In this document: positions 160 through 20,028 of the stretch, in pieces
How the letters are laid out: every line of letters begins with the position of its first letter
Numbering within the stretch: the stretch's first letter is position 1
From: Cyanophora paradoxa CCMP329
Lineage: Eukaryota > Plantae > Glaucophyta
Direction: 5' to 3'
Assembly (NCBI GenBank): GCA_004431415.1
Contig: QPMI01000212.1
Location: 1-64,000, forward strand
DNA: 64,000 nucleotides
Notes under the pieces: model-generated
What the model was told of the DNA's origin: nothing
Seen by the model: the letters and a program-made list of their open reading frames with translations, nothing else
Databases searched by the model: none
Program-made: the position numbers and the translations under genes

Positions 160-363
160 ATTATTTTCCAGCATATTACTAGGCTGGGGATATGCTGTTT
201 ATTCGCTGAAATACCAAATCCTTTTTGTATCTGAACCACTCGATATATCATGTGGATAAAATTCGTAGGGATACTTTCTCGATTTCCAACAAAAAATGAT
301 TGGGGGACCCAAAACTACTTAAAGAAAATCTTCTATATATATAAAAGGGACCCCTCGCTGAAA

Positions 364-2654
364 ATGAACGCCAAACAGACAAGTTAATCAAATCGCTCGC
401 TAACTGGCTTCGTTCTGATGAGGAACTCGCCAAAAACATGATTATCCCAGTGAAACCTGACAGCAAAGACCCAGTTTCAAGCATAAGGGAGGTGCTTGGT
501 CCTGGGAAAAGTATGAGGAAGCGCTGGCAACTAATCAGTATGTATCTTGGGGCATTCTGCTCTCAGACAACATGATGGTTATTGACTTTGATGATGAGGA
601 GACTTTGAGAAATTCCGGATATGTTTCCTGATGACTTTGATGCCAATCAGCCCATGGCAAAAACTAAAAAAGGCTATCATGTCTACTTTAAACGACCTGA
701 GGAGTTCACTAAACTCAAAATCACCGATAAGGCTCCAGGCTTTAAAGGCTTTGAAAAGGTTGACCTGAAAACAATCACTGGAACTGGAACTTCTGGATTA
801 ATTAATGTTTGTCCCAGTGTCAACAAGACCTGGGTAATTGCTCCATGGGATGATACCTGTGATTTCAATGAGCCTACTGATGAGTTTAAAAAGTGGATTG
901 CAGAGAACTATATCTATAAGAGTGAGTATACTGCTAATGCTACCTCACATGATGCATTGGAAAAGAGTATTCTTAAAGAGCTGGTGGATATGGGCTTTAT
1001 GCATCCCAATATAATCTCTCAAACTGAACTGGGCTTTAACTTTGATGCTGCTAATAAGGGACTTAATTGCCCATGCTGCAATGGTCCCATGAATCGAATA
1101 ACTGGTATGTTATGAAAGCCAAAGGAGAAGATAAAAAGTATATTGTGTCCAGCTACAGTGGCAATTGCAAAAAACGATTTATCTTCATTGGAATGCAATC
1201 TGATATCTTCAATCTCATTTGATAAGTCCGCTGGTTCTGGAGCGCTCATTATGATGTCAGTCTGTGTGCAAAGAGGTACTAAACATACTTGGAGATACTC
1301 CAAAAAGTCATGGTTCAAACTCAATACTGATACTGGGATTTGGGAGCATGATGACACAAACCAAAAGATTTACTAGACATAAGTTGCCTTGTTGTCCCTC
1401 AATACCTTGGCAGGCTGTGCATTATAGCCAAAGAGCTTTGAAGGATGAAGAGAATAGAACAGCTTTCGAAGAGAATCGAAAACATTAATTTCTATTGCCA
1501 AAAATCTTAAACAATCAGGATATCGCAAATCCCTTCTGACTGATCTGCTCCCTCTGCTGAATGATGATGATTCTATGAAAAGATTGATACAGTTCAATAT
1601 TATATTGATTCGATAATGGTGTATTTGATCTGACAACTATGACTTTCAGAAAGGGGAAACTGGAAGATATGTGAGCAAGAGTGTGGTTTATGATTATACT
1701 GAGAATGTAGACCCCAAAAGTAGACCATCTCAATCAGATTTATAGAGATTGTAGATGATCCAGCAGAGCGAAACTACCTTCTGGCATCTATTGCAATTGC
1801 CCTCAGTGATCAACAAAATCACAGATTCTACATGTGGACTGGTGCTGGGGCAATGGTAAATCACTTGTTCAGGAATACTGCAAACAGATTTCAGGGCTTA
1901 TTATAGCCCTTCGAAATATCTATTGGACCAAACCTAAAAGAACTCATCAGATGCTATCCTGAACTTGCCAAACTCCTTGGAAAGCGACTTGTATTCAGTA
2001 ATGAGCTGAAGATGGTGATAAACTGCAGATCTCCAAAATTAAGGAGGTCACAGGTGGAAATGAAATGACTGTGAGAGCCTTGTTCAAAGACCCAGTAATC
2101 CTCACTCCAATGTTCCAGGTTTACATTACAACTAATGACAATTTGACTATAAATAAACCAGACTTTGCATTCAAAGAGACTTTCATACCAGAGATTCAAT
2201 AATATATTCAGAGAGAAGCCTGAAGCTGGTCAGAAGAAAGCTGACCCAACACTGTTCACACTTCTACACAATGATGATGAGTATAAGATGGCTCACATGA
2301 AGATATTACGGATATGTGGAAGAACAAAGAGGTTGAAGAGATCTTAAGAAATCCCCCTCAATCGATTATTGAACAGGAATAAACTTTATAGCTGAAATGA
2401 TAAGATTGGTGAATGGCTTAGGGATAATTCGAAGTTACCATAATGCAAACGACTTTGTTTCGAGTGATATCATTTACAAATCATACAGAAGTGTCGATGA
2501 TAAAGTTGAATGTGTTTCTGTGATGAAGAGAGTAAGGAAATCTTCAATGTGAAATCAGAGGTTAAACGAATTCAGGGAACCAGAGCAAGGGCTACATTGG
2601 ACTTCGAAAGATAACAAGGTTCAAGAAGACAATGGAGAGGATGTTGAATATTAA
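364..2654 (+). pseudogene. Prim-Pol primase fused to D5-like SF3 helicase, frameshifted
   Basis: Stitched frames give Prim-Pol motifs (IIPVKPDSKDP, GILL..MMVIDFDD, KTKKGYHVYF), a CPCC Zn-binding site, Walker A (WTGAGxNGKS, ~1835-1863), ELAKLLGKRLVFSNE and KEVTGGNEMTVRALFKDP..FQVYITTN. Many 1-nt deletions. Confidence 0.88.
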
Positions 2655-2714
2655 ACAAAACGATTTATGATTGAAATGTATATGTATTTTTATAGCCTTA
2701 CTGGAAATGGTGTT

Positions 2715-2804
2715 GTTCACAGGTGTCACAGGTCCATCCCATCTAGGGCTATAAAAAGAAAAATGACCAGGGGACGATAAAAACCTGTGAACACCTGTGA
2801 CACC
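2715..2804. promoter_or_regulatory. Iteron-like inverted-repeat element, candidate replication origin (copy 1)
   Basis: Tandem (G)TGTCACAGG units face their reverse complement CCTGTGA(A)CAC across a ~50-bp spacer, 60 bp downstream of the primase-helicase stop. Confidence 0.55.
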
Positions 2805-2871
2805 TATCGAAAAAGACCAAAATTTGACAAGAATACTTAAAGCTTACTTGATTGTGTATAGTGAAGACAAA

Positions 2872-3015
2872 ATGGCAAAGGCTCTTGAAGAAATGACCAT
2901 GATTGAGTTAGATAAATGCATTAAACATGGAGATATAGGGGCATATATCGAAATGTCACAGAGATTGATAGGTTACAATGTGTATGCAGCAAAACAAAGA
3001 GAAATAGATCAGTAA
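2872..3015 (+). CDS. Small viral hypothetical protein
   Basis: ATG at 2872 (MAKALEEM...) after an AT-rich leader. No recognisable motif. Confidence 0.35.
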   Translation: MAKALEEMTMIELDKCIKHGDIGAYIEMSQRLIGYNVYAAKQREIDQ

Positions 3016-3373
3016 ACATTCACATAACTGTTTCAGTGTCTGAGAATGCAAACAAAAAACAACAAAAGCATATTTACAAAAGTTATCTGTGACTTGATTG
3101 CAAGTATAAAGCCAATTCCTTTGTATATATTTTTATAGCTGCCTCAGTAGCATACTGAGACCGCTTTTTCTCAATTATCTTATAGACCTGGGGTCCATTG
3201 CTACTTTCAGTTGGCAAATAATATTTAATCGGTCTTCCTCTGGGTCTCTGCTCTCTTTTTGGGCTTTTCTGCGATAATAGGATGCCAGGGCTTGTTGCTT
3301 TTTATACTCTCTATATTCTGGTCCTCTCTATATCGTTTCTGCATTGCTAGAATGTGTCTTATAGCACCCTCAG

Positions 3374-3679
3374 TTAAGGCTCATCACTGGTAAACTCGAT
3401 CAAACTAATTGTATCCTCCATTAATATTTGCTGAGAAACGTTTTCGCCTGGCAAAGACTTCTCCTTGGATATCCTGTTGCTCCTGTTGCTCATATGTATA
3501 CTCTGTGGGTCTGCTGCATTGACTCCACAGAAACTGTAGACCTCCTTCTCTCTTGCTTCTGAGGCATTATCCTCATTATCTGACATCTCAAACTCCACTG
3601 TTGTCTCACAACATCCACTGTGGCAATTGCTCACCACATGCAGACTGAACATCTCGAAGAACTTTCGTATTATGTCCAT
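3374..3679 (-). CDS. Viral hypothetical protein with CxxxCC motif
   Basis: 101-aa ORF beginning MDIIRKFF..NCHSGCCE. The C-terminal frame may be affected by indels. Confidence 0.45.
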   Translation of the reverse strand: MDIIRKFFEMFSLHVVSNCHSGCCETTVEFEMSDNEDNASEAREKEVYSFCGVNAADPQSIHMSNRSNRISKEKSLPGENVSQQILMEDTISLIEFTSDEP

Positions 3680-3699
3680 ATCTCTAATAAAACAGAGAT

Positions 3700-4420
3700 A
3701 ATTAAAGCCAAACTCGTCTTTATATACTGTTGGGCAACTCCCTTTTCTACTTCAGCTTTGGTGGAACCAGTTCAATGGTTCCCTTTGGGTTTTTGTTTTC
3801 ATTTCATCTACTGCCTGCTCATCGATTTGGTTCTCTTTCTTAGCAATAACTGTTTATCTGGACACCAGTGATTCCATTTATAAACTTCCTTCGAAGCATC
3901 TCCTTTAGCTTGGCTCTCTCTTCTTCTCAGTAACATACTGCTTCAAGGCACTTGATTTGGCTTCCAGATCTTTGAGTTTAGCAGTCATCTCATCCCATTG
4001 AGCCTTGGGAATTCGATGAACATTCTGAGTGGAGCAGTCTTGTATGTGACTTCACCAGCCATAGACTGAATAACCTTGTCTGATTCCTTACTAAGACCTT
4101 CACCTTGCGAGCCAGTGAAAGATCTTGCAAGCCTAAACCTTTATCATCAGCAGCCCAATAATTCGCCTGGCACCCTCAGCAACAGCTTTCATTTTGAGGC
4201 TTCTGGTGAGATGTTGAGTTGGTCACTGGTTGAAGCCTGTGGGCTTTGTCATCGACTGATTCCTCATAGGCAGCATTAGAGGGTCCTCTTCTTGCTGTGA
4301 GGGCTTTACCTCATTCATACCATTGAACTTCAGTGGATCTGTGTTAATGGATCCATTGTTTCCACCACCTGAATAGCCAACAGCCCCAGCTGGAATCCCT
4401 ATCTTTCGTTTGGGAGGCAT
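3700..4420 (-). pseudogene. Basic/Lys-rich viral hypothetical protein (possible core protein), frameshifted
   Basis: Starts MPPKRKIG (NLS-like). Coding-like K/E-rich sequence continues across frameshifts. The end is approximate. Confidence 0.4.
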
Positions 4421-4497
4421 TGTATCTTTATTAGAATGAGAGATAATTTTATAACCGCGTTTATATCGCATCAATTTATTGCTATGGACTTGGCTTT

Positions 4498-5226
4498 TCA
4501 CTTCTTTGGGGCTTCCTCTTTTTCTGGTGGTTTCAGTTCATCCTCTTTCTTTTTTGGCTTCCTGTGGAAGCGAGGAAATGGGAAATCTTTCACAGCTCAG
4601 CTTTATCTACATAGTATTTAACTGAGTAGTTTGCAGAGGACCAAATGATATATTGATAGGAGTGAACATACTCTTCAAACATCTTGTAGAAATCCTCTTT
4701 ATTTCGCATTATATTGTATTCTTCCTCTATGGCTTCAAGTTCTTTGCGATTAGCAGCACTGAGAAACATAGCATAGTCAGAATTAACTCGAATAGTCGAC
4801 GAGACTTTCCTTAGCTTTTGTGTGATGCAGATAATGGATATTTTCGAATGGCGACCTCTGGAATACAGAGATCCGATTATTTTATCCCTTGTGAGATCGA
4901 CTATCTCATTATCGATTAAATCATCTAAAACTACACATAACTGGTTAACAGGTTCACCTTTCTCTATTTTCTCTTGCCTCTCATCTAGCAATTTAGCAAT
5001 GTAAGGGGCATCCCATTTTCCCAGTTGCAGTGTTGCCACTTTATCCCAGAAATGATTGAAGCTGGTTCCACTCACAACTAATACAACATCAATCTTTTTG
5101 GCATCATGTAATTGCTTTAACCAATACTTTACAGCTTCTGATTTACCAGTTGCTGATTTTCCTATTGCCAATACACGAAATGGTGTTCTATCATTTCACC
5201 AGCCACAATTCATCCAAATCAGTCAT
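4498..5226 (-). CDS. A32/FtsK-HerA family genome-packaging ATPase
   Basis: Walker A GKSATGKS, Walker B VVLDD, and the family motif SRGRHSKISIICITQ..IRVNSDY. Core ORF is 4590-5171; the termini are reached by inferred frameshifts. Confidence 0.92.
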
Positions 5227-5288
5227 TGTTGTATATCTTTCTTAATAAAGACATATAAAATAATGCAGGAGACTGAAATCGTAACAAT

Positions 5289-6647
5289 CTATAAATTAAT
5301 TCTGCGTAAACCATCTTTGTCCAAAATTATATAGGAATGCATGAGAGCGCGAACATTAACATCGATTACCTTATCTGAAGGCATGTAGAGGGTGAGGAAG
5401 GAAGAAGAGGAATTTGTTAAATCAACATAACCAGACTGGGCAATATTTCGAATCGCCTTCTCTCCATCAATGCAGAAACTTAAACCTGAAAGGACATATT
5501 TATCTGCGACCTTATCCATGTTAGAGCATTTGAAGGCATCAGCAATTAGCTCAGCACCTTTGAGTAGGGAAATTGGCTCAGTGGCAAAAAGTCGCTGTCC
5601 ATTAATTTCAACAGTGAAAGTAATATCTTTGGAGTTAGCATAGGTCTTAAGAACACTGTGGAGCCATTGGATTTGTCAACAGTTTCATGATCACGAACTG
5701 AAACAAGCAGAGCATATACAAGACCTGAGATTTGAGAGAGGTTAATTCGATTGGTTGGGCATTGCCCTTGGCAGGGAAAGCACTAGCATCTACAAATCCA
5801 ATATCAAGGGAGGAATAGCCATGCCAGTAGTCTTTACTTTTTCAATTACAGTAGCGAAAAGCTCATCAGAAACATTAATAGCATGCATGTAAAGGCGAGG
5901 AGAAGTAATAGAAATAACAGGAGTTGTTGCACCAAGACTGAAAGTGGTGATGTTTTGACCAACATGGGCAAGGTTCCATCTGTAAAGTTTCCAAGACCAT
6001 CATCAGCAGTTGCATCAACAGTTCCAACAGCAGTTGTGAGTTCACGACCACCATAGGAAGTTTCAACATAACCCTTTCCAGCATCCTTAAACCAAACAGT
6101 AACAACCATTTCACCAGATAAAGCACCAAGGGGAAGGTAGTGATTTAGCCAAGGCACTGGGATCTCAACGAAAAATGAGCCACCAAGTCGGTTGGTTCCA
6201 TGAGCAGGATACCATGAACCATGCCCATTGAGCGTTTCTTTTTAGCTAGTTGATCCTCCGAATAATAGACCAGGGGGAAATGAGCAAGGAAATCAGAAGG
6301 ATGTGGTAGGTGTAAGATCCATAGGTAATTTCAAGTCGCTGAACTAAGCACCAACTGGGCGAGTGTATCCATTGCGAACAAGGTCCGTATCACCAGCAAA
6401 AGTGATGGCTGGAAGGTCGAAAGCAAGTTCGAGTTTTCCACAGAAATTGTAGCGAGGTAGCTTGAAGGAAATGCGATTTCCAACATTATTCTCAAAAGTA
6501 TTGCTGGGATTCACAACAACTAGAACTGGCTTAGACTTGGATTCGAGACCAAGCATAAGGAGTTATCCAGGAAAAAGGCTTTCGCCTCCTCTGGGGTTGT
6601 TAGGCTTCTTTCAGCGAAAGTCTTTGAAGAGTGGAAGTGATATCCAT
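5289..6647 (-). pseudogene. Major capsid protein (double jelly-roll, PLV-type), frameshifted
   Basis: ~450-aa beta-rich product from fragments: RISFKLPRYNFCGKLELAFDLP, FFVEIPVPW..YLPLGALSGEMVVTVWF, TFTVEINGQRLF, GLSFC..SGYVDLTN..LTL..VNVRAL. It lies between the ATPase and a penton. Confidence 0.8.
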
Positions 6648-6700
6648 TATATTCTCTTTTATTATACTGCAACATAAAAAATCTACCAATGATCCTTAAT

Positions 6701-7709
6701 TTATGCGAAGCTTGTAATAACTGGATAGGAAGGGTGAAGCTGTGACATTCGCATCTTAAAGTATTCATAAACTGGGTCCCCAGCTGGCTCATCACCATAG
6801 CGAATTTCAAAGGTAAGATGAACAGGTTGACCCTCAAAATCAATTGGTTCATTAATAGCATTTACAATATCAACCGAGAAAGTGGATAATCCAACTTTCT
6901 TATTATAGTATTTGTAAAGTGGGTGAGCTTCTGTTGAATTGTAAACAACATGCTCTCCATAGTCTTTATCAGGGACCACTATTTTATGGAAGTAACCAGT
7001 CAGGAGACCATCCCCACATTGCACCAGATCACCCAGCTCCTTTACCCTCACAAACAAAACACTGTCCCTTGTCTTTTCAGGCTCAAAAGAAGATATAATG
7101 CCATTCACTCGACCATCAGTAAAGATTCCATCAGTGAGAGCATCATAAACTTGGGATTTGATTGGGGAATTCCCATATCTTCCAGGATCAAGACCAAGCA
7201 GTCTAGCTGAACTCAATAGCTTTTGGATTGTTTGTTGGCTTGGGTTTACAGCAAGTGAGAAAGCCAGGTAAAAAGGCACTGCCGAGTGGAATATAATTCG
7301 TTTCAGTGACTCATCCCATTTGCAGCGAATGGATGGTTGGGGAGTTCTGCCAATGAATTTTGAGTTGATTACATTCACCAGCTGTTGGTGGCTTTGGATG
7401 GGGGTCTCGCGATTTACCATGAATTGTTTCCATTGTTCAAAATCAGCAGCTGGGCGAGTTGTTGGAATTCCTGAGCTTCCAGCTCCTGGAGTTTGTTCCG
7501 AATAATAAATACTAAATGTGTTATCAACTGTGACATCTCCTGCTTTGGTTTCACCACTCACCATAGGGATGCTGTTATAAAATTCGGCTGAGACCAGTCT
7601 CACAGCCTCACATTCTCATAACTACTGGGAGTCGAGCCACAAAGCTTGATGTGGGACCATCACCAGAGATTGTATTAAATGAGCTAACCTCGATGTAATC
7701 CACAGGCAT
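6701..7709 (-). CDS. Minor capsid protein (penton) 1
   Basis: SSFVARLP..RLVSAEFYNS, LLGLDP, LFVRVKEL, LSTFSVDIVNAINEPIDFEGQPVHLTFEI match the single jelly-roll penton pattern. One frameshift near 7610. Confidence 0.8.
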
Positions 7710-7737
7710 TCTTCTTTATCTATATTTATATATTAAA

Positions 7738-8659
7738 ATGAACCGGCTCGTTAATATTGATAGCAGGGATAGAAGCCAAGGACAAAATGAAAACTCTTAC
7801 AGGGTCACCCTCACAACTCCAGTAGAGAGACCAAGGAATGTAGGGTTCTCTATGCAGAGATTCCAAACAGTATCTATAACAGTGTGGGAACTGATCATCT
7901 AACAGTTCAGTTTAATTACCAAGATGGTTCATATAACCAAGTGATCACACAACAAGTGTATCCCTTCCCAGTGGCTACATCAATCAGGTCATTTTGGGTA
8001 ACACACCTTATAATTATGGGCTGAACTATTCAAGCTTCCAAACCATTGCAGGCAAAACAGTAGCTTTGAGTTCAAGATATTCTATAACCCAACTACCTAT
8101 AAAGTGGAGTTTTACAGTAACCATGAGTTTCGTTTTATTGCAAGCAACCAGAGAATAGGGAAGCTTTTGGTGTGAGTTCTACTGAATACACCAATGGGTA
8201 TTATAGCACTCCTCCTGTTGGTGGATCACCCTATCGACCTGAGAACCTGTTAAAGTATGATGCAAACCTATTACACCTGATCACCCAGCATGGGAACCAC
8301 CTTTTCAGGACCCAGACTCTCATCTAAGCCCTTGCAATATTATTTTGACAGCAGAAAGATGTCTGATATGAATGCTGAGCAGTATCTATACATGCACATT
8401 AAAGAGCTTGCCCCTTTTGCCAGCAGACACAATATAATTCCGAAATCGCAACACATAACCAGGGGCAATCCTTAGATTGCAATTGAGTAAGGATATAGGT
8501 GGCTATGTTTACCATAGTGGTGAACATGCAGAATTCATTCAGATAAATGACAGAAACCTGGTGATAAGGGAACTCACAGTTGAGTTTAAAGATTACTTTG
8601 GTGAACTGATTGATATGAATGGAATCGATAATTCTTTTCAGTTGGAGTTTATCGAATAA
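7738..8659 (+). pseudogene. Minor capsid protein (penton) 2, frameshifted
   Basis: N-terminal LVNIDSRDR and C-terminal IRELTVEFKDYFGELIDMNGIDNSFQLEF are typical of penton-like proteins. Several indels lie between them. Confidence 0.78.
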
Positions 8660-8827
8660 AGGCACCTGTAAAGTCAACTCTCATTGTGGGAGCATTCACA
8701 TACACAAGGGATAAATGCGAATATATTTAATTCTGAGAGAAAAACCTATGTAAAAGCATCCTTGATGCTGAGAGGAAATCCACTCAATAGAGCCACATCA
8801 CCTGAGTTGTGAGCATTGTTAATGTTC

Positions 8828-10201
8828 TCACAGACATATATTTGTTTTGCCATCTGATCGAATAAAAGACCAGTTGATCCCATCAGTGGATGTTGCCACA
8901 TTGAAAGTCTTAATAAAAGCATTGGTGTCCCCTGATCCATAGGCAATCACAGAAGAGAGTTCAAAAGTATATGGGAAAGCAACTTGAAGGTATTCAGTGG
9001 GGGTTTCCCATATCTGCTCAGGAGCATAGGCTCCAGCTTCCCAGCCAAATGCTGAAGGTCTAGCCATGAAAGGCTCTTTACCTGTCACAGAGGATGATGC
9101 AGTAAAGGCATCATCTGCAAGCTGATACCAATTGGCATCCAAAGGAGGTGATGTAGTGAGAGTGGATGAGATGTAAGCCTTTGTAGGGTTCTTAAGTTCA
9201 TAGTTTGCTACTAGAAGGCTGCAAAGCTTATTTATCATATCATTGTTTGCTGCTATGTATGTTTCAGTGAATGCTATCATATCTGGGATTTTAGAAGTGT
9301 CATCCAGAGAGCTTACTATATGATTTGGAAGTGGGACTGATAGCCTATAGTATCTCCCATAATCCTGATCATAGTTGTAGGGTAACAACTCCTCCATCTT
9401 ATCAAGGGCAGAAAGCTCACTTGCAGCCATGAGCATGTTAATCAATGGGCTTCCATCTGTTGAGGCAATCCATGAGAGAATTCCCCAGCTGTTCACAGTC
9501 TCATAAGCATAACCCACATAATCAGACTCTAAATGTGGGTCCACCTCACCACAAGAGATACTTATTACTATAATATCATCATCATCACTGTAAATCTTCT
9601 TTGCATGGCTGTAACCACACACACTGGGATTATTGTTTCCCGAAATGGCACCATCAATGAGACAGACAAATACTCCCCGATTGAAATCAACAATGCTTAC
9701 AGGAGAGAAATATGTAGGAGCAGCAGAAGTAGCCCTAGCAGCAATCTTACAAGGCATAAAGTTGTAGTTGTTGTCATTTGTGATAAATATTGGTTTCATA
9801 TTCTGAGTATCAAAGGATGTGATCACAATGTCCTTTAGGGAATCCTGTATGAGTGATTCACCAGTAACTGAATTGATTGCAGTCTCCAAGGGTCCCACAT
9901 CATACTTTGTATTAAATAGGGCATTTTCGATTATATTTCGAGGATTTGCGAAAATCAAGGGCAGTTGAGTTAGGTAAATATTGTGTAAATCGTTTGCTGT
10001 CAGTTTAGGTTCACCTGGTCTATCAGGATGCCTTATATTCAAACCTATTGCAATGATCCCACCAGTGGAAGTTCCACTCACAAGATCCACAAGATCGATT
10101 ATTCTCCTGCCAGTTCGATTTTCGATTTCTTTTAGCAGCCTGGTTATGATAATGCCCCTTGCACCCCCGCCAGAAAGACTTAAAACGACCTTGAGAGGCA
10201 T
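8828..10201 (-). CDS. Patatin-like phospholipase with C-terminal discoidin (F5/8 type C)-like domain
   Basis: LSGGGARG oxyanion motif, GTSTG nucleophile, ATSAAPTYF and DGA. The C-terminus has EYLQVAF..SSVIAYG..IKTFNVATSTDGINW. The true end is probably further down (~8650-8750) via a frameshift. Confidence 0.92.
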   Translation of the reverse strand: MPLKVVLSLSGGGARGIIITRLLKEIENRTGRRIIDLVDLVSGTSTGGIIAIGLNIRHPDRPGEPKLTANDLHNIYLTQLPLIFANPRNIIENALFNTKYDVGPLETAINSVTGESLIQDSLKDIVITSFDTQNMKPIFITNDNNYNFMPCKIAARATSAAPTYFSPVSIVDFNRGVFVCLIDGAISGNNNPSVCGYSHAKKIYSDDDDIIVISISCGEVDPHLESDYVGYAYETVNSWGILSWIASTDGSPLINMLMAASELSALDKMEELLPYNYDQDYGRYYRLSVPLPNHIVSSLDDTSKIPDMIAFTETYIAANNDMINKLCSLLVANYELKNPTKAYISSTLTTSPPLDANWYQLADDAFTASSSVTGKEPFMARPSAFGWEAGAYAPEQIWETPTEYLQVAFPYTFELSSVIAYGSGDTNAFIKTFNVATSTDGINWSFIRSDGKTNICL

Positions 10202-10244
10202 CTTTTACTTATCAGGAATTTTATAAATCCATATAGTAAAAGCC

Positions 10245-13200
10245 ATGAGCTTCAATTACCCACCAAATCTAGAAACCATTCAAGATGATAATGCAAGCAG
10301 CACCAAGCATGTGAACTTTGATAATATTAAAGTAAAGGGTTCAGTTTCGATTGACCACAGTTCCGATAATTCATCCAAGACTCAATCAAGGGAGCATGCT
10401 TTATCTGTGAATCAAACCGATCCAGATAAGGAGGAAGTTAGTGTTGCTTTTAGCTTGGGTAATGTGAAAGCAAACCAAGTGGCAGAGATCAAAGCAACAA
10501 GAAGGAGACCTAGGAAACTGAAAACCAGTGGCACTCACCCAGATATACCTTCCAGGTTTGATAGTGGTCGATTGATTTTCAATGTTCAAGATGAGCAGGG
10601 CAAACAGAACACAGCTTTGCGAATTTACAATGAGGGCAGCACTGCAAAAGCTGAGGTCCCCCAAGTATTGCAAGTGGGTCCCATTGCCAACACAAATCAG
10701 GTCTCCTACACAAATGATGTCTACCCCAAGGATATTACATATGACTTTGCAAGGAATGAGCCTTTTGGGTTCTTTACTCCAAAAGATGTCCATCAAAAAA
10801 AGCCATCAATTACAATCAACAGTAGCCCCAGTCAGCCAGTAGCAATCCATTTACATCCTGATTTAGTCGAAATGGATAGGCACCTTTTGCCTTTGTATAG
10901 CAATGTGAAAGACCTTGGAATTAGAACCAGGCAATGGCGAAATATCCATGGCAGCAATGTGTATGCAAATGGGGAGAAACTTGTGAGTGAGAAAACTCTA
11001 AGGGAAATAATTGAGCATTATGGTCCCAATGGACCAACAGTCCCATTCCCTATTCCATTTCCAAATGGACCTCCCGATTTAACACCAAAGAAACAGCCTG
11101 GAAGAGAATACACAGCAACTGAAGATGTAGCCTTTGGGCAGCATATTGTTAGTTGGGAGCAAGTTCGCAATAAACCTATAATTGAACCCAGAAAGCAAAT
11201 AGATGAGCAGTATTTACCTCCTGAAGTCGATATATTAGAGCTTGATGAATATCAATTCGTTCCAGATGAGGAAGAGTATTTACCAGATGGTTTTGACCCA
11301 CAAGAATATGAATATGATCAGTATGACCCCAATGAGGAGGAGATACTACCAGATGGCTTAGATCCCCAAGAGTTTGAGTATGAGCAGAACTATGAACCTG
11401 ATGAGGAGTATTTGCCAGATGGGCATGATCCACCAGCTGTTGATTATGAGCAACCTTATGAACCCCATGAGGAATTGTTACCAGATGGATTTCGACCTGA
11501 GATCTGGGAGTTCTTTCCTGATTATGAACAAATAAATAATAAACCTGCAAAGTATCCCCCAGAGGATCACAATCATGATTGGGATGAGATCTTAGGCAAA
11601 CCACAGAAATACCCACCAGAAGACCACAGGCATGATTGGGGTGATATTGATGGGATTCCAGATAAGTTTGCAGCAAGCAACCATGAACACACCTGGGATG
11701 AGATCAATGACCAACCAGAATTTGCAAAAGTTGAGCCTCTTGCTACTCTGGGAGTTTCTCTTTACCAGACTTGCAATGTCCCTGAAAGGATCTTTTTGAA
11801 TCACCACTATGTTCATGTGAATGGGACACTTGCGAATTCAGCTATGAGAGGACCACTTCATATTAGGACATTACCAGGCTCTTATAATCCACCACCTGAA
11901 CCAGGAGCAACCATACCAAATATCTTTGTGTCAAGCTACATGGAGGCTGACATTCCCACAGATACATTCAGAGTCCCAACAGACCCAGCAACCTACCAAA
12001 ATTACAACTCTGCTATACAGGTTCATGTAGCAGATGTAAGCAGTTTAGATGGCTCAAGACCAATGATAGTTTTCAGTCGAGATAAGTATTCCTACATTCC
12101 CATAGTGGGAACTGCAAATGATAATTATGGAAGGGCAGAGCTTGCATGGATTAAAACAGATTATGGTGGGGTTCTGGAAGCCAATCAGAGGATGGCAGCA
12201 AAAAACATACACAATGAAAATATTTCGAGAGTGGTCACAGAGGATTATCTAGAAGATCAAGGATATATTGATGAAGGTGAACTCACAAATATTCTTTCTC
12301 TTTTTGTGATCAAAAATGACACAAACCTTACAGTCACTTCCAATATCTACACCAGTAACCTTTATACAAGTAACATTTTCACAAGTAACCTATGGGCAAG
12401 TAACATTTGGACAAGAAAACTATGGGCAGATGATATTTACACAAGTAATCTTACAGTGTATCGAAATATAACAATTGGAACACAAAACACTATACAAATA
12501 CTTTATAGACCTTACTACGCTGTTACAACTGTCATTGATCCAGCCCCAATTATTCCAAATTGTATATTTGCATGGAAAGCATCAGGTCAACATGGTCAGT
12601 TGATATATTATCAAGGTCAGATATATAACAGAGTTACTACACAGATACCATATCTAACAAATTATTCAAATTGGGAAACTGTTTATTATTATTTGAATGC
12701 AACCCTAAACAATCAAATTTCGATTGGGAAAGAATTAAACATGGCTTATAGGAATAGTGTTTCAATAGATTGGTCATTAGGTCTTACATTATTCTTTATA
12801 GGTAGGATCAATACTACAAATCCTTCTTATATGTTGAGTATAAGGGATAGTTCTTATCAAAATTGGATTGGATATGGTTGTAAAAATCAAAAGTTTGGTG
12901 TTTCACTACAAATTCAAAACGATATAGAAAATGCAACTCCTCCATTATTCGATGCATCATATATTTATAATTCGTGGAATTATTGGGATTTCACTGTTTC
13001 CTCAGAGCAAATTGTCGTAGGAATGGGTGGTATTGATATTGGAACATTATCGGGTGATTTTCTTCCACCTTCTAATTTTGCATCATTTGGTTCTTCTGTT
13101 GCTAATGGAGATCTTGCCGAAATTATCGTTTTCAATCGTGCGTTATCTATTGAAGAAAAGAAGGCGGTTAGATATTATATACAATTATTGTATGGATTTC

Positions 13201-14588
13201 CAAATACGCAGCCCATATTGAATAATGAAGATCTTAAAATTAATTCGAGCAATATATTTATTGAAAATCTCACAGTTACCAAAAATGCAACTCTACCACA
13301 TCATCCAACATCGAATGTTGTTTTAGATTGGTTAGCAAAACAAAAACACACAAAAGCAGATATTACGGATTTCGCCCATACTCACACAAAAGATCAAATC
13401 ACAGATTTCGCCCATACTCACACAAAAGATCAAATCACAGATTTCGCCCATACACACACCAAAGATCAAATAACAGATTTCGCACACACTCACACAAAAG
13501 ATCAAATAACAGATTTCGCACATACTCACACAAAAGATCAAATAACAGATTTCGCCCATACTCATTTATGGGAGCATATCACAAATCCTCCGTTAACCTT
13601 CCCACCTGATTCACACACTCATGATTATTCAGAGATTACAAATAGCAACCACAGGCACCCATGGAGCGAAATAGACGAACAGCCAGTTTTTGCCCAATTG
13701 AATGCAATCGGAAACGTTTTTAATGGAGTCACACTTTACCAATCAATTAATACACCTGAAAGGCTATTTTTGAATGATCATTATGTTAGTCTCAATGGTT
13801 CATTTACAGGTGAAACAGGCACACCGATGGTGGGAACTCTTGCAGTAAGATTACCCAGGGATCCAATCGTAAATGGAGTGTATAGTGGCGATTTCAATGT
13901 AGGAGTAAACGATACTTTCCCCAGTATCTATGTTACGAATTATCACCCAGGAGAAATAGGACAAGTAGCGGATTTTTCAGCAGCTATTCAAATTAACGTA
14001 ACAGATCAAAGCGCATATGATGGAGCAAGACCTAAAATAGTATTCACAAGGGAGAAAGTTGTAAACTATCTTCCCGTTGCGGGACAACCCACAGATGATC
14101 ACGGTAAATGTGAGATGGCGTGGATTAAAACAACAACAGGAGGCGCCTTAGAAGTCAATCAGAGAATGGCGGCGAAAAACTTACACAATACAACCCTTTC
14201 AGGTGTTGTTACAGATGATTACCTAACCAATAAAGGGTATCTTACAACAGCAGATTTAAGCAGCTATGTAACAGAAAGTGAATTGGGAACGACTCTAAAT
14301 AATTATACAACAGATGCAGAGTTAACAGCAGCTCTAGGAAATTATTTACCTCTTACAGGTGGGACAGTTAATGGAACTGTAAACGCTACTAGTCTACAAA
14401 TTGGTGGAAACACAATTCCAAAAGGATATGATTTCGATCAATTAGATGTAGTATCAACAGATAGAAGCGCAAATAATTGGAATTTGAATTGGTCACCAAG
14501 AACAGGACAAACAGGATGTTATACAACACCACAAAATGATGAAGATTGTAGCGGTTGTTTTATGAGGTGGACTGTCCCACAGGTATGA
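10245..14588 (+). CDS. Large virion fibre protein, N-terminal part
   Basis: 1447 aa with acidic EEYLPDG repeats, HxHxWxEI..KP and AHTHTKDQITDF phage-tail-type repeats, TSNL/I repeats, a LamG-like segment (GDLAEIIVFNRALS) and YLPLTGGT. Confidence 0.8.
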   Translation: MSFNYPPNLETIQDDNASSTKHVNFDNIKVKGSVSIDHSSDNSSKTQSREHALSVNQTDPDKEEVSVAFSLGNVKANQVAEIKATRRRPRKLKTSGTHPDIPSRFDSGRLIFNVQDEQGKQNTALRIYNEGSTAKAEVPQVLQVGPIANTNQVSYTNDVYPKDITYDFARNEPFGFFTPKDVHQKKPSITINSSPSQPVAIHLHPDLVEMDRHLLPLYSNVKDLGIRTRQWRNIHGSNVYANGEKLVSEKTLREIIEHYGPNGPTVPFPIPFPNGPPDLTPKKQPGREYTATEDVAFGQHIVSWEQVRNKPIIEPRKQIDEQYLPPEVDILELDEYQFVPDEEEYLPDGFDPQEYEYDQYDPNEEEILPDGLDPQEFEYEQNYEPDEEYLPDGHDPPAVDYEQPYEPHEELLPDGFRPEIWEFFPDYEQINNKPAKYPPEDHNHDWDEILGKPQKYPPEDHRHDWGDIDGIPDKFAASNHEHTWDEINDQPEFAKVEPLATLGVSLYQTCNVPERIFLNHHYVHVNGTLANSAMRGPLHIRTLPGSYNPPPEPGATIPNIFVSSYMEADIPTDTFRVPTDPATYQNYNSAIQVHVADVSSLDGSRPMIVFSRDKYSYIPIVGTANDNYGRAELAWIKTDYGGVLEANQRMAAKNIHNENISRVVTEDYLEDQGYIDEGELTNILSLFVIKNDTNLTVTSNIYTSNLYTSNIFTSNLWASNIWTRKLWADDIYTSNLTVYRNITIGTQNTIQILYRPYYAVTTVIDPAPIIPNCIFAWKASGQHGQLIYYQGQIYNRVTTQIPYLTNYSNWETVYYYLNATLNNQISIGKELNMAYRNSVSIDWSLGLTLFFIGRINTTNPSYMLSIRDSSYQNWIGYGCKNQKFGVSLQIQNDIENATPPLFDASYIYNSWNYWDFTVSSEQIVVGMGGIDIGTLSGDFLPPSNFASFGSSVANGDLAEIIVFNRALSIEEKKAVRYYIQLLYGFPNTQPILNNEDLKINSSNIFIENLTVTKNATLPHHPTSNVVLDWLAKQKHTKADITDFAHTHTKDQITDFAHTHTKDQITDFAHTHTKDQITDFAHTHTKDQITDFAHTHTKDQITDFAHTHLWEHITNPPLTFPPDSHTHDYSEITNSNHRHPWSEIDEQPVFAQLNAIGNVFNGVTLYQSINTPERLFLNDHYVSLNGSFTGETGTPMVGTLAVRLPRDPIVNGVYSGDFNVGVNDTFPSIYVTNYHPGEIGQVADFSAAIQINVTDQSAYDGARPKIVFTREKVVNYLPVAGQPTDDHGKCEMAWIKTTTGGALEVNQRMAAKNLHNTTLSGVVTDDYLTNKGYLTTADLSSYVTESELGTTLNNYTTDAELTAALGNYLPLTGGTVNGTVNATSLQIGGNTIPKGYDFDQLDVVSTDRSANNWNLNWSPRTGQTGCYTTPQNDEDCSGCFMRWTVPQV
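13347..13565 (+). repeat. 36-bp coding tandem repeat x6 (HTKDQITDFAHT)
   Basis: Six near-identical units CACACAAAAGATCAAATCACAGATTTCGCCCATACT are directly visible. Confidence 0.95.
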
Positions 14589-16186
14589 AATCATTTTATA
14601 TTCAGCATATGCCTTGGTATAATGGCAGATATTTTGATATCTATGGTCAGACTCTCAATAACAATCAGCATTTCTTAAAACGTGTAAACGATTATCAAGG
14701 AATACAGTCAGTAAATCATGATGGGACAAATAATACTATCTTGTTTGTATCAATTAATTGCGAGTTTTACAAGTATATTTATGTTCAAGGTCGAAAAGGT
14801 CGCATTCATCTCACAGGAGTTTTTGGTTGGAGTAGACAAAGAGCAACGGATAATGAGGTTGGTATGATCTCTTGGGATAATATTTTTAGTAAACCATCAT
14901 TTTATTCAGCCGCAGACCTTCCACAAACAGCGACATGGCCAACAAATACATGGTTAAAATCAACCGACACTGTTCCGCGAATTTGGTTTGGAAATGGTGA
15001 TTGCACATATATTCGAGGTTATGGAAATGGTGATGGTGTTTCAATTGAATTCAGAGACTCAGCAGATGGAGCAATATTAAAGTCTTATAACAATGGTAAC
15101 TTTTGGGTGAAAAACACTATTACAGCACCCACTATTAATGCTACTACCAAACTCCAAATAAATGGTAATGATGTCCCAAAGTTTCACACAGCGGATTCAT
15201 CAAAAGGAGGAATTGAATTTAATAGATGTTCTTATAACGATTGGGAGTGGGCATGGAGTTCATCATGGGATCCATATTATAATTATGGTTCTTACGTTTA
15301 TAATAAGCAATCGGATGATCAAACTTCAACCGCTTGGATAGACTTCGATATTCCAGAAGGATATCTCAAAGGAACAGCGTTTTTAACTTATCTACCTTGG
15401 ACTAACTCACGAATTTTTGAAATTTGGGGAGTAAATCGACAAGGAAATGAAGTTTTTATTACATCAGTGAATAGTTATCAACCATACGCCACATCTCCTG
15501 ACAGTAACCACAGCGGTTTAAATAATGTTCCTATACATCTCGGTAATCGATTTTTGACTATTCGGATTAGACCAAAGATTGGAAGAGTTCATATTATGGG
15601 TATAAGTTACATGAAAATTTGGGTTGGACATAGTTATGGAGGTCACACCGGTTATATTCATTGGAATAATGTTTATAGTAAACCAAATCTTTTAACAGGC
15701 ACTGTGGGAAGTTGGTTTAATTCCAGTGATGGATACAATCGTATCCATTTCGGAAATAACACCTCTACATACCTGAAAGGAAGGGGAAATTATCCAATTG
15801 TATTTCGAAATGAATTAGATTCTGATGTTTGTTGGATTGATCATGACGGGCGGATGTGGATAAACAATTATTTAACACAAGGAAGTGACATAAGATACAA
15901 AACAGATATTAAAAAGATAACCGGCGCTCTCAAAGCTGTTGAGAAATTAGAGGGAGTGAGTTTTAAACGAATTGGAAGTGAAAAAGATGGAGTTAAATTA
16001 GGTTTAATTGCACAAGATGTTCGAAAGGTAATACCAGAGGTAGTTAATGTTAAAAAAGACGATGGCTACCTATCTCTTGAATACACAGGTTTAATTCCAG
16101 TTCTCATTGAAGCTGTGAAGGAGTTGTCCCAAAAATGCAAAGATCTACAGGATCAAATAGACCAAATTAAAAATGTCAAAGTATAA
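14555..16186 (+). CDS. Fibre protein C-terminal part with peptidase S74 intramolecular chaperone
   Basis: SDIRYKTDI..ALKAVEKLEGVSF..GLIAQDVRKVIPEVV..LEYTGLIPVLIEAVKEL plus a coiled coil. Probably continuous with the upstream ORF. Confidence 0.88.
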   Translation: MFYEVDCPTGMKSFYIQHMPWYNGRYFDIYGQTLNNNQHFLKRVNDYQGIQSVNHDGTNNTILFVSINCEFYKYIYVQGRKGRIHLTGVFGWSRQRATDNEVGMISWDNIFSKPSFYSAADLPQTATWPTNTWLKSTDTVPRIWFGNGDCTYIRGYGNGDGVSIEFRDSADGAILKSYNNGNFWVKNTITAPTINATTKLQINGNDVPKFHTADSSKGGIEFNRCSYNDWEWAWSSSWDPYYNYGSYVYNKQSDDQTSTAWIDFDIPEGYLKGTAFLTYLPWTNSRIFEIWGVNRQGNEVFITSVNSYQPYATSPDSNHSGLNNVPIHLGNRFLTIRIRPKIGRVHIMGISYMKIWVGHSYGGHTGYIHWNNVYSKPNLLTGTVGSWFNSSDGYNRIHFGNNTSTYLKGRGNYPIVFRNELDSDVCWIDHDGRMWINNYLTQGSDIRYKTDIKKITGALKAVEKLEGVSFKRIGSEKDGVKLGLIAQDVRKVIPEVVNVKKDDGYLSLEYTGLIPVLIEAVKELSQKCKDLQDQIDQIKNVKV

Positions 16187-16189
16187 TAA

Positions 16190-16495
16190 ATGGCGACCTA
16201 TCCTCTTGGTGGAACCACCTATTCTACTGAGCCTGTTGCGCTTTCTTTTGATACAATCACCCTTGTAAACGCATTACAAACAGTTGAAAAAACGATTCAG
16301 CAAACTAACAAGCTCTCACCAGTTGTCAATGAGTATAAAAACCTCTTGGTTAATGTCCTTGCTCAAGCTGCATATGGTGACCCTGTTGCTAAATACACTG
16401 AGTGTGATAACAACATTAAAGCAATGACATCCAACCTGCAAGTTCTTTCAACTGTTTACCAATCCCTTGGATCGAATTTAATCACTTTGGCTTGA
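16190..16495 (+). CDS. Viral hypothetical helical protein
   Basis: Intact 101-aa ORF tightly packed in the fibre cluster. Confidence 0.7.
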   Translation: MATYPLGGTTYSTEPVALSFDTITLVNALQTVEKTIQQTNKLSPVVNEYKNLLVNVLAQAAYGDPVAKYTECDNNIKAMTSNLQVLSTVYQSLGSNLITLA

Positions 16496-16534
16496 TTGCA
16501 GTTTATTTTTCTTTCCTTCTTAGTAAAAGAAGCA

Positions 16535-17380
16535 ATGGGTGAATATAATCGAGTTCAACTGCCTATATATTCCCTTGGATCCCCTGCAATGCATTTTCGC
16601 CAGCATGAAGTAAATGATGAGGTTCGTGGTTTAGAATCCACAGAGAGACCCAATTCCAATGGCAACTCCTTTGATAAAAATTCGATTATTCGAGTTAAAG
16701 AGCTGAGAGCTGATAAGAATTCTGGTGTGGTTAAAACAACTCGACTTCTTGTCACAAATGCTAACTTTTTCCAGCCTACCAATGGAGGTCCTGATGCTTA
16801 CAGTGTTGATCTGAAAGCCCTTGATTTCGATAAGAATTCTGCTGCTGTTACTGTGAGATCAGGAGGAGCATTTATTGGGGGTGGCTGTCGAATTTCAGGT
16901 CAGCTTTCATCCTCAATTTCGTATAATGATGTCCCAGATACTCTAGAGCAAAATGTAGAAGACCCCCAACGAATTCGATTATATACTCCTGTTGCACAGC
17001 AGCCACTAGTTCAATTTTACATTGGATATACTGTTACTCTTGAAAACTCGGAATTAATTGAAGGAACCAAAAGAGTACTGAGAGGTCTTGCGATTCCATC
17101 TGCAATGCTTTCCCTTTGTAGAGCCAACAACAATCAAGTAGGTCATAAATACTATTTCAATGTTCAGGGATATAATCATTTCGGTTATGGCTACTGTGTT
17201 TATAATAATAATTTCACCTTTGACTTGTTTGTTACAGATATTGGGTTATATACTATAACTCTTATCGGTTTGAGAACAGATATAGCCGCTGTATCAGCTC
17301 TTAGAGGTGTAACTCCTGATACTCTTTCAGTTACAGGGTTTTACATGGAGCCAGATGTAATTGATGACCCAACCCCATAA
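16535..17380 (+). CDS. Short fibre-like protein, paralogue A
   Basis: ATG at 16535. Shares ELRxDKNxGxVKTTxLLVTNANF and SGGAxIGxGxRxxG with the next ORF. Confidence 0.75.
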   Translation: MGEYNRVQLPIYSLGSPAMHFRQHEVNDEVRGLESTERPNSNGNSFDKNSIIRVKELRADKNSGVVKTTRLLVTNANFFQPTNGGPDAYSVDLKALDFDKNSAAVTVRSGGAFIGGGCRISGQLSSSISYNDVPDTLEQNVEDPQRIRLYTPVAQQPLVQFYIGYTVTLENSELIEGTKRVLRGLAIPSAMLSLCRANNNQVGHKYYFNVQGYNHFGYGYCVYNNNFTFDLFVTDIGLYTITLIGLRTDIAAVSALRGVTPDTLSVTGFYMEPDVIDDPTP

Positions 17381-17403
17381 AAGATATATCCCTTTAATGT
17401 AAA

Positions 17404-18237
17404 ATGGCTGAGCAACCCCCACTTGAACGAATTATTACACCACAGCTATCATTAGCTGCCCCAGCAAACCATGTTCTGCAGCATGCTACTTTTGATGATG
17501 TGGAAGGTCTCCAATCAACAGAGGTCCAACCTACAATGAACACCTTTGGTTCCACCCATAAACTGAGATTACAGGAACTCAGATGTGATAAAAATAATGG
17601 AATAGTTAAGACAACTAAGCTACTTGTGACAAATGCAAACTTTTCTGCTCATTATGGAGACCCAGATAGCTATGGAGATCCTCTGTCTACTTATTCTTTT
17701 GAATCTAGGTCGGGAGCTATTAACTGCAAATCGGGAGGAGCTTATATTGGTGATGGTCTTAGGGTTGGTGGGGCTGTTGGAGCGCCTCTATTTGTGAATG
17801 ATCAGCCCAATCCCATTGATCCTAACACAAGAATTCGAACCTATGTCCCCAGCATGAATGCCCCATACATTATAAAGATATTCCCCATTGTTGTAAATGA
17901 ACAAACAGCAGTAGTAGACTCTCTTGTTGAAATTGGTGACCACTACAAGGTAGTTGTGGATATCCCACCAGATGTATATGCTGTATGTCAAGTAGAGGGT
18001 GGAACTCCTAATTTTGCAGTTGTGATCACCCCATATGATAATTTTGGTATTGCTTATCATGGAGTCAATTTCGGTTTGGAAGACTATCAGTTCTTAGTGA
18101 GAGCCACCAAGTTTGGTATCTACAAGTGTGTGATGTTTGCAGAGAGAACCGATTTTATTGCAAAGCAGAATACCTATGCTGAATACTATGGGACAAATCG
18201 ATATTTCCCCATTTTTGGGCAGGATACTGCTCCATAA
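17404..18237 (+). CDS. Short fibre-like protein, paralogue B
   Basis: 277 aa, a clear paralogue of 16535-17380. Confidence 0.75.
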   Translation: MAEQPPLERIITPQLSLAAPANHVLQHATFDDVEGLQSTEVQPTMNTFGSTHKLRLQELRCDKNNGIVKTTKLLVTNANFSAHYGDPDSYGDPLSTYSFESRSGAINCKSGGAYIGDGLRVGGAVGAPLFVNDQPNPIDPNTRIRTYVPSMNAPYIIKIFPIVVNEQTAVVDSLVEIGDHYKVVVDIPPDVYAVCQVEGGTPNFAVVITPYDNFGIAYHGVNFGLEDYQFLVRATKFGIYKCVMFAERTDFIAKQNTYAEYYGTNRYFPIFGQDTAP

Positions 18238-18259
18238 GAATATTGGTTATATATAGAGT

Positions 18260-18532
18260 ATGGATAGTAAAACAAAAAAGTTTATTGATGCTGCTATGAC
18301 AGTTCATGGTAAAGATAAATTCGATTACAGTGAGACACATTACATCAAAGCTCAAGAGAAAGTATCTGTTAGATGTTTGCAGTGTAACAAGGTGATCCTT
18401 ACATATCCCTTTAATCATGTGAAGGGATCAGGTTGTAGGGAATGCAACAAAAAGCATTCTCAGGCTTACAGGAAAAGGGCTACTTCATCAATCAAAGTAG
18501 AGTACAGGGATATTTGCATTAGGTTCGATTAG
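18260..18532 (+). CDS. Zinc-ribbon protein (DUF723-like, endonuclease-associated type)
   Basis: FIxxAxxVHG..FDYS..Y....KVxVRCxxC....P.NHxxGSGCxxC pattern, common in phages and large DNA viruses. No nuclease domain is attached. Confidence 0.7.
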   Translation: MDSKTKKFIDAAMTVHGKDKFDYSETHYIKAQEKVSVRCLQCNKVILTYPFNHVKGSGCRECNKKHSQAYRKRATSSIKVEYRDICIRFD

Positions 18533-18561
18533 GATTAATTAATTTTTCTAAGGTATTCTTA

Positions 18562-18960
18562 ATGGAGACTAAATACAGAGGCTTTCATGTAATGCTTGAT
18601 TACAAGGCTAAAACAGCTATAGCAACAGGTTATGAGCATGTTAGCTTTCTTGGTAATTGGATTATGAGAACCCTTGAACAAGCAATATTGAGACAAGGTA
18701 TTAGGATTGTTCATAAACACTGTGAGATATTTGATGGGAAACTATCACCTCCTGGTTTTGCATTGGTTCTGCTATTAGATGAAAGCCATTGTACAGCTCA
18801 TTGTTATTCCAATGAAGGCATGTTAGCAATTGATATATTCAGTTGTGGTAAAGAAGCTCAGCATAAAACACAAGCAGTTGCAGATGAGATCGATAAAACA
18901 ATGAATTTCCTCACATTTGAGAAGACTGAGAGACATAAACATGATAGATTCCCGTTTTGA
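18562..18960 (+). CDS. speD: S-adenosylmethionine decarboxylase proenzyme (prokaryotic-type, pyruvoyl-dependent)
   Basis: 132 aa with GxHxxxD, F...PPGF..V.LLDESH.TAH.Y..EG..AIDIFSCG. The E-S self-cleavage site and the conserved Cys are intact. Confidence 0.9.
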   Translation: METKYRGFHVMLDYKAKTAIATGYEHVSFLGNWIMRTLEQAILRQGIRIVHKHCEIFDGKLSPPGFALVLLLDESHCTAHCYSNEGMLAIDIFSCGKEAQHKTQAVADEIDKTMNFLTFEKTERHKHDRFPF

Positions 18961-19402
18961 TAGGTTTATATAATGATAATCAGGGTAATTTACCTTTTTT
19001 ATTACAAAAGCTTTCTACAATGATTATTTTCCGGATTCCGGTCATTCTTTACGATAGAAATTCTACTGTATGATGTAGCCGAAATATGAATGCACCCTAC
19101 ATTAAGCAATGTCAAATAATTAGAATAATGTTCGATTTCCTTACACTAAAACCTCAGCATCTGCCCAAGATTCCCCCTATAATTAAAGTGGACTCAAGGT
19201 TGACTCATATTAATCGTAAAAGTAGTAATAGTATATGGATTTTGTTACGAATTCAATGCAAGGGTTGACTAAGTGGGTTGAGTTGACTCAAATTTCACAG
19301 GAAATAACAATGAATCAGAGTATAAAATGCATTTTTTGAATCAACTACACCAACTAACACTGAGATTTTCACAATATAAGAGGTCCTTACTGAATATGGT
19401 AT

Positions 19403-19494
19403 GTGTCACAGGTGTCACAGGTTTATCCCAGCTCAAGCCCTATAAAGAGTGATTTTCCCTTTCGATGGGATGGACCTGTGACACCTGTGACACC
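19403..19494. promoter_or_regulatory. Iteron-like inverted-repeat element (copy 2, inverted relative to copy 1)
   Basis: GTGTCACAGGTGTCACAGG ... CCTGTGACACCTGTGACACC. Bases 19464-19490 are the exact reverse complement of 2717-2743. Confidence 0.6.
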
Positions 19495-19745
19495 CAATTA
19501 TTTCAAAAATCCTAAGGGTCCCCCCTTAGACTCATTAAAACATGATAATAACATATCAATTTCATGTATAATTACGATTGGATTCAATAAGAGATCTATT
19601 TGTTTTATTTAACAAATGAATCTTTTATGGATCTTAATCGAGTTTAGCGATATGTTTCCGATTAAATGAATTAAATTTAATTAAATTTAATCGAGAAAGT
19701 ACATGAATATAATATCGATTAAATCAATTAACTTTTAGACCAATC

Positions 19746-20028
19746 ACACATAGTAAAATGCGGAGTTTTAACCAGAGGCAAGATCTAATTGAGATTCAGT
19801 TATATTATTCGGAAATATATACAGATTATCGATAGACTCAGTAAGACTAATCGGAAAATAAGAGAAATTTACGATAAAATATCGAAAAGAATACAAAATA
19901 ATCGAAATAAATGAATATTCGATAAGATATACACAGATTATCGATTGATTGAAATAGAATATACGAGATATATCAACAAAATCAATTAAGATAAGCCGAG
20001 GGTTAAAACTCCGCATTTTACTATGTGT
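19746..20028. repeat. Terminal 283-bp unit bounded by perfect 28-bp inverted repeats
   Basis: ACACATAGTAAAATGCGGAGTTTTAACC (19746-19773) and its reverse complement (20001-20028). The latter ends exactly at the AT/GC boundary. Confidence 0.9.

Follow-up and report, generated by a model that had tools for sequence, protein, structure and literature searches.

The window analysed here comprises 64,000 nucleotides (positions 1 to 64,000 of contig QPMI01000212.1) and begins with a low-GC element, which is read from its sequence as an integrated polinton-like virus. Two sites of this element, designated A and B, probably bind the element's own primase-helicase, with site A as the likely replication origin and site B as a likely second or auxiliary origin. 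The sites are read as origins because of their layout, the position of site A behind the primase-helicase gene, the presence of the same motif beside related enzymes elsewhere, and a compensatory allele in the same host. The first-pass annotation of this region had offered two roles, namely dual replication origins or recombination sites able to invert the structural block between them. The first was strengthened by the position, the motif, the sister allele and the domain layout of the protein, and A and B are retained as predicted origins; the second was not borne out.

Layout of sites A and B

2714..2802, no strand: site A, units 2714-2732 facing inverted units 2784-2802 across a 51-bp spacer; candidate primary origin
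19404..19492, no strand: site B, four perfect TGTCACAGG units with a 53-bp spacer; candidate second or auxiliary origin

Each site has a size of about 90 bp (89 bp) and consists of four units of 9-10 bp apiece, two of them facing two inverted units. This layout had been described before and was found at both sites; the perfect four-unit set, however, is present at site B only, whereas each arm of site A combines a perfect unit with a second unit that carries an additional T. In short-read contigs spanning site A, which were obtained in two of four runs, the spacer contains two more bases than in the window, giving 53 bp at both sites. At site B, the complementarity of the arms reaches inward to 35 bp, and the structure z-score is -7.3, compared to -2.9 for site A.

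Sites A and B are real and far beyond chance. With up to three mismatches, TCACAGGTGTCACAGGT occurs four times in the window, compared to 0.04 occurrences expected, and all six exact copies of TGTCACAGG in the 64 kb lie within the two sites. A generic facing-iteron detector identified solely A and B in 1-20100, no site in the remaining 44 kb and none in eight resamples. The 27 bp reported to be exactly inverted between the sites (2717-2743 and 19464-19490) are exact reverse complements, while the longest inverted match in 40 first-order Markov resamples of the element was 13-17 bp. An Rfam search of 1-20500 gave no match, and a scan for sigma-70 promoters and terminators around site A gave chance level only.

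The contigs of the four runs contain many variants, with 183 indel places relative to the window, and the 12 of these that were shown are single bases missing from the window. Such a richness in single-base indels might point to an assembly artefact at A and B. However, contigs reach across site A, the site that was examined base by base, A and B are unlike in their inner arms and flanks, and all 30 bins of 101-20100 are covered in all four runs, which leaves an artefact with a close to negligible probability.

The primase-helicase gene beside site A

360..2654, forward strand: Prim-Pol / D5_N / SF3 primase-helicase gene, frameshifted in the assembly, gene ends inferred

Site A is located about 60 bp 3' of the inferred stop codon (about 2654), and no primase-helicase gene is present beside site B, which is separated from the right end of the element by 536 bp. 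The earlier placement of one site behind the primase-helicase gene and of the other in a subterminal position was thus correct. Since the contigs carry single bases that are absent from the window, most frameshifts in the window are likely to be assembly errors, and the genes that are broken in it are probably whole in the living cell.

A phmmer search with 609-1112 identified 149 relatives, the best of which, P0003 (775 amino acids), is collinear over its residues 6-725 with 375-2498 of the window at 38% identity, with 21 breaks. P0003 was used as a full-length proxy for the frameshifted gene; longer protein searches with the primase pieces of the window gave no matches. The domains of P0003 are Prim-Pol (below the cut-off), D5_N and DUF5906, and the DUF5906 match in the window gene is also below the cut-off. 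A Prim-Pol match above the cut-off was obtained for 6 of 14 scanned relatives. P0003 passes the P4-family primase-helicase model TIGR01613 with 139.5 bits (cut-off 108.7 bits). Its predicted fold (predicted local distance difference test score, pLDDT, 86.7) matches the structures of African swine fever virus (ASFV) PrimPol and monkeypox virus (MPXV) E5, and the model places a helix-helix-helix-hairpin domain at the C-terminus. Bacterial helicases encoded next to the same motif could be aligned at their C-terminus with the P0003 profile (100%).

The same motif in bacterial and phage loci

Motif scans identified 71 loci, with 16 from IMG/VR, 51 from metagenomes and 4 from GTDB, including three partial matches inside a peptidase gene (L022, L043 and L044) that are regarded as chance. 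A primase or helicase gene is present within 300 bp in 38 of the 71 loci, in most of them at 6-20 bp, and one later addition brings this number to 39. The domain assignment of neighbouring genes covered 82 of 121 nearby frames in one scan. The flanking genes code for Prim-Pol/D5 proteins (in SAR116-type and other marine bacteria) and VapE-type SF3 helicases, with single cases of TOPRIM-DUF927, AAA_25 and DUF3631. The spacers at bacterial and phage loci are mostly 47-55 bp long, and an alignment of ten chosen sites revealed near-invariant units, with spacers and flanks that are not conserved in this way. Peptides of the element's own capsid block or fibres gave no match in the motif-scan loci up to L069.

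In bacterial elements, copies of the units occur immediately after helicase stop codons, and these copies have no CTATAAA core. This bears on the proposal that A and B are promoter or transcription-factor elements around a TATA-like core, as would be suggested by the CTATAAA in both spacers, in the same orientation, and by a short open reading frame (ORF) whose start lies about 70 bp past site A. Site B, however, is not followed by any ORF, and with the core missing from these bacterial copies there is little chance that this proposal holds.

Two high-GC IMG/VR records of unrelated hosts (L005/L014 and L013/L018; 81 and 61 kb) contain two TGTCACAGG sites each, 35-36 kb apart, with one copy just upstream of a primase-helicase gene (17 bp from the frame). 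The pair has a direct orientation in the first of these hosts' records or the second, and an inverted orientation in the remaining one, a finding more in keeping with origins than with inversion sites. A four-unit site was also identified in six phage loci (L004, L007-L010 and L016), five of them near a family A DNA polymerase gene.

Sites lacking an adjacent helicase gene were found in 14 of 36 loci of the marine alphaproteobacterial type. Such orphan sites, alongside varied metabolic genes and several of them at contig ends, are present in L023, L028-L030, L032, L033, L039-L041, L055, L059, L064, L065, L069 and G006. Together with the TG...CA ends and the length of about 90 bp, orphan copies would fit a short non-autonomous mobile palindrome, similar to a miniature inverted-repeat transposable element, that was inserted twice. 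By inspection, however, a target-site duplication is absent at both sites and an outer flank is common to both; no copy is present in the 44 kb of host DNA, and the motif is tightly linked to helicase genes. This explanation is extremely improbable.

A sister allele in the same host

A sister allele in the same host carries switched units on both arms. About half of the contig depth at site A comes from this second allele, which differs at 12 of 92 positions just upstream and runs into TGTGACAGG twice, with loose ends in three of the four runs and aligned through in the fourth. Right-arm contigs with the exact reverse complement of the TGTGACAGG arm were found in three of the four runs. In the sister allele, the central base is thus switched in at least two units per arm, and the arms stay complementary. 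One contig ties the switched arm to the 3' end of the helicase gene, with 44 differences over about 350 nt. Because the helicase alleles differ by about 10% in mid-gene as well, these differences do not indicate a special co-change of the binding domain. The switched motif gave no match in viral_contigs.

Orientation of the two sites and possible exchange between them

2696..2713, forward strand: outer flank of site A, direct match to 19385-19403
19385..19403, forward strand: site B outer flank, matching 2696-2713 in direct orientation
19262..19358 (19188-19358 in its wider delimitation), no strand: degenerate second inverted array immediately to the left of site B, with units of the GTTGA type opposed by inverted ones

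Sites A and B had been described as two inverted copies with different spacers. This holds for the inner arms, which are crossed, so that the left arm of A equals the right arm of B and the right arm of A resembles the left arm of B. For the whole sites, a score of 101 was obtained in direct and of 91 in inverted alignment, and the direct alignment has 77% identity over 64 nt. The left outer flanks match directly, with a score of 25 compared to 13-18 in the other three flank pairings. The spacers, with a tied score of 25 in both orientations, share ATCCCA..CTATAAA..AG at their centres in direct orientation. A and B are better described as direct repeats; the label of inverted copies is misleading, with the inverted match being confined to the inner arms.

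The 27-bp inverted identity is likely to be a by-product of arm-to-arm copying in a near-palindrome, that is of template switching, and would then be no sign of inversion sites. Swapped or homogenised inner arms are reportedly the expected outcome of template switching between inverted arms. For A and B as recombination sites inverting the 16.7-kb structural block, one could cite this identity and a possible recombinase gene end at 1-260, assigned by eye only; the fragments at 1-260 matched no family and are not assignable to a recombinase. The direct orientation, however, fits better, the paired copies elsewhere occur in both orientations, and the motif follows helicases rather than recombinases. 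The crossover site of a tyrosine recombinase consists of short inverted arms around a 6-8-bp spacer, unlike the tandem units around 51-53 bp found here. In the short-read contigs of the four runs, which drop rare forms, no joint was present at site A and no inverted product among 11 loose ends; likewise, none of the 15 joints listed out of 41 for 101-20100 lies at site A or B. There is very little chance that A and B invert the block.

Exchange of arms is a different matter. A site-B-like flank (21 of 30 letters in register, by eye) is joined to an A-type arm in all four runs, which would be explained either by arms passing from one position to the other or by a sister subfamily whose sites are nearly identical. 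The first possibility would fit a site B that has no function or serves as a spare, and that remains from a duplication or from the swapping of replication modules among family members, with site A as the origin. Further points in this direction are the lack of a helicase gene beside B, as in the orphan marine alphaproteobacterial-type loci, and the adjoining degenerate array of another type, which is possibly the origin for another helicase type and was missed by both the strict and the relaxed facing-iteron detector. However, B is the more perfect of the two sites, with four exact units and the stronger structure score, the 53-bp spacing is kept, and two further records likewise contain a second copy at a distance. 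A spare copy is therefore considered unlikely, and a functional second or auxiliary role of site B is, by analogy, slightly favoured.

Comparison to known origins and proposed mechanism

The helicases of Staphylococcus aureus pathogenicity islands (SaPIs) bind facing iterons behind their gene via a winged-helix domain, probably with one hexamer per side (PMC9371898 and bioRxiv 10.64898/2026.10.17.759575), and PMC6092414 describes the same origin layout for phage-inducible chromosomal islands (PICIs). SaPI/PICI Rep and PriRep5 are SF3 self-loading helicases with a C-terminal winged helix, and these domains are present in the proxy P0003, while in the window gene the first half of the winged-helix domain could be aligned. 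Site A, and not site B, also shares the position immediately 3' of the gene, and at least two opposed iterons per side and allele-specific units are common to both systems. In contrast, SaPI/PICI origins contain 6-12 units of 5-6 bp in about 300 bp, compared to four units of 9-10 bp in 89 bp, and here an AT-rich centre relative to the background is absent, a second copy is located 16.7 kb away, and the element is a eukaryotic one that probably encodes a capsid. Because of the missing AT-rich centre and the fewer and longer units, A and B are set outside the SaPI/PICI class, although they would work alike.

For the Sulfolobus plasmid pRN1, a stem-loop of about 100 bp located 54 bp behind the gene is required and works when moved, and its protein ORF904 has the same domain order (PMC4234260 and PMC2777425). 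Both systems have a protein with Prim-Pol, SF3 helicase and winged-helix domains, here again via P0003. The inverted repeat of pRN1, with a 21-nt stem and a 58-nt loop, is comparable to site A, which has arms of 18-20 bp around 51-53 bp. In pRN1, however, the structure rather than the sequence is conserved and no iterons were identified, while the element carries tandem units with a sequence common to bacterial elements; moreover, its site is present twice and its host is eukaryotic.

The alpha protein of satellite phage P4 needs two separated cis sites, ori and crr, and the layout of crr differs from that of ori. The element likewise has a pair of candidate cis sites at a distance from each other, which have their repeats in common and would serve a single primase-helicase. 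In contrast, alpha contains a DnaG-type primase (PMC2777425), whereas a Prim-Pol is present here, and A and B share one layout.

For polinton-like viruses, an end-module model proposes inverted repeats near the primase-helicase gene, or terminal palindromes, as the origin (PMC11296320 and bioRxiv 10.64898/2026.07.28.741278), and terminal palindromes are likewise proposed in PMC10120064. A terminal palindrome is present here too; however, the model points to terminal repeats, while here an internal iteron site and its subterminal twin lie apart from the terminal repeat. The replication mode of most polinton-like viruses is stated to be unknown in bioRxiv 10.64898/2026.07.28.741278. A literature search, with subscription journals and supplements outside its scope, found no report on iteron origins in polinton-like viruses, the nearest being the end-module and terminal-palindrome proposals, and a search on virophage iterons found one paper, on a phage satellite.

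By analogy to SaPI and pRN1, site A is probably the origin of a self-loading helicase. As inferred from these two systems, the C-terminal winged-helix domains of the helicase hexamer would bind the facing units, so that a hexamer would sit on either side, at a distance of about five helical turns from its partner. The spacer would be opened by the hexamers, and priming would be the task of the Prim-Pol domain. In a circular form of the element, should it arise, B and A would lie as direct repeats on either side of the genes for integration and replication.

Several observations weigh against this reading. The C-terminal winged-helix domain of the window gene was aligned in its first half only, to 2498 (score 49.5; shuffles 28.4, maximum 42), and its profile match is weak (E 5.2). 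No primase-helicase gene is present within 300 bp in 33 of the 71 motif loci, some of which are contig ends or partial matches; the 71 loci are redundant, forming 17 clusters by spacer words, and the profile seeds were drawn from the same motif loci. For the six phage loci, a search of three of their records turned up no D5-type helicase. That one molecule of the sister allele carries both switched arms is deduced from their complementarity and comparable depth. The A+T content of the spacers is 61% (A) and 57% (B), compared to 61.5% for the whole element; the 21-22-nt spacer cores have 73% and 62%. Since the spacer A+T is no higher than that of the element, the AT-rich centre of SaPI/PICI origins is lacking. 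A GC-skew turn specific to site B was not found. Finally, 76 of 79 IMG/VR loci with related D5 genes, described below and mostly giant-virus records, do not contain the strict layout within 10 kb.

Particular to this locus are the twin site, the units common to bacterial elements and the compensatory allele. It provides a defined 90-bp candidate, a second site and a natural specificity control in the form of two helicase alleles with units switched by one base, and opens origin recognition in polinton-like viruses to a direct bench test. If the reading is true, eukaryotic viruses would share an origin layout that, among bacterial replicons, was once regarded as peculiar to PICIs (PMC6092414).

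Facing arrays in other eukaryotic viruses

L157:8239-8345, L152:1609-1714 and L163:251-356: virophage arrays, three GTGTAGGG-type units facing three inverted units

The 79 screened IMG/VR loci were drawn from the best 80 of 414. The strict detector was positive in three of them, all related virophages with Sputnik-type capsid genes. Their arrays are located up to about 0.7-1 kb upstream of the Prim-Pol/D5 gene, and the units differ from those of A and B. The virophage inner arms are of two types, paired 1/2, 2/2 and 1/1 and thus swapped or homogenised, the same pattern as in A and B. With a relaxed detector, one plausible extra array (L150, 190 bp behind the D5 gene) was identified among 13 further matches, which are mostly simple repeats.

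L150:1-9950 is its own exact reverse complement and contains a D5 primase-helicase gene, a recombinase-like gene (by eye) and the facing-unit array. It is either a linear hairpin-ended element or an amplification artefact.

In a wider and tentative view, which is possible but doubtful, polinton-like viruses and some virophages with Prim-Pol/D5 helicases might begin to replicate from internal iteron origins of the type known from bacterial satellites. Allele-specific pairs of helicase and iterons might let sister elements coexist in one genome, and the element might need or use two sites bracketing an exchangeable replication module.

The host element

19746..20028, no strand: terminal inverted repeat of 283 bp with perfect 28-bp arms, at the GC boundary and right end of the element
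4590..5195, reverse strand: A32-type packaging ATPase (PF04665, E 1.7e-10)
5289..6600, reverse strand: probable major capsid protein gene, in pieces, by position and eye only
8828..10204, reverse strand: patatin-like lipase with an F5/8 domain, by domain match
10245..16186, forward strand: pair of fibre-like genes, the second of which carries an S74 chaperone domain, by domain matches
18562..18960, forward strand: S-adenosylmethionine decarboxylase gene, the last ORF before the non-coding right end

The element (1-20028) has 38% GC and is set in DNA of 56-77% GC, presumably of a GC-rich single-celled eukaryote and probably an alga; 29 frames gave two weak Pfam matches for placing the host. At least 20 kb of it lie in the window, with the left end being outside. 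Features of polinton-like viruses are the A32 ATPase and the low-GC insertion in the 15-30-kb range with a primase-helicase. For the capsid gene pieces, no database match was obtained, including longer protein searches, and a major capsid protein of the double jelly-roll type is putative here. The single-sequence fold of 6704-7615, with a pLDDT of 33, was unusable. IMG/VR searches with the ATPase and P0003 as queries retrieved no close relative of the element.

In 20 of 21 listed runs, all of one organism, half or more of the words of 10001-20000 are present. The element family appears as high-copy and diverse in the host. The summed contig depth, which is not a copy number and was unused as evidence, falls in the helicase region below the level reached in most of the structural block, and parts of the fibre genes have low values as well.

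The arms of the terminal repeat enclose 227 bp of very AT-rich DNA (z -10), and ahead of the repeat a perfect 22-bp A/T palindrome is present at 19670-19691. This end structure resembles the terminal palindromes reported for non-pPolB elements. In the fibre-like gene of 1447 amino acids, 13305-13592 contains a coding repeat of 36 bp in six to eight copies, and the family includes variants of different length. The S-adenosylmethionine decarboxylase gene, located here in a small virus-like element, adjoins an HNH-associated zinc-finger gene.

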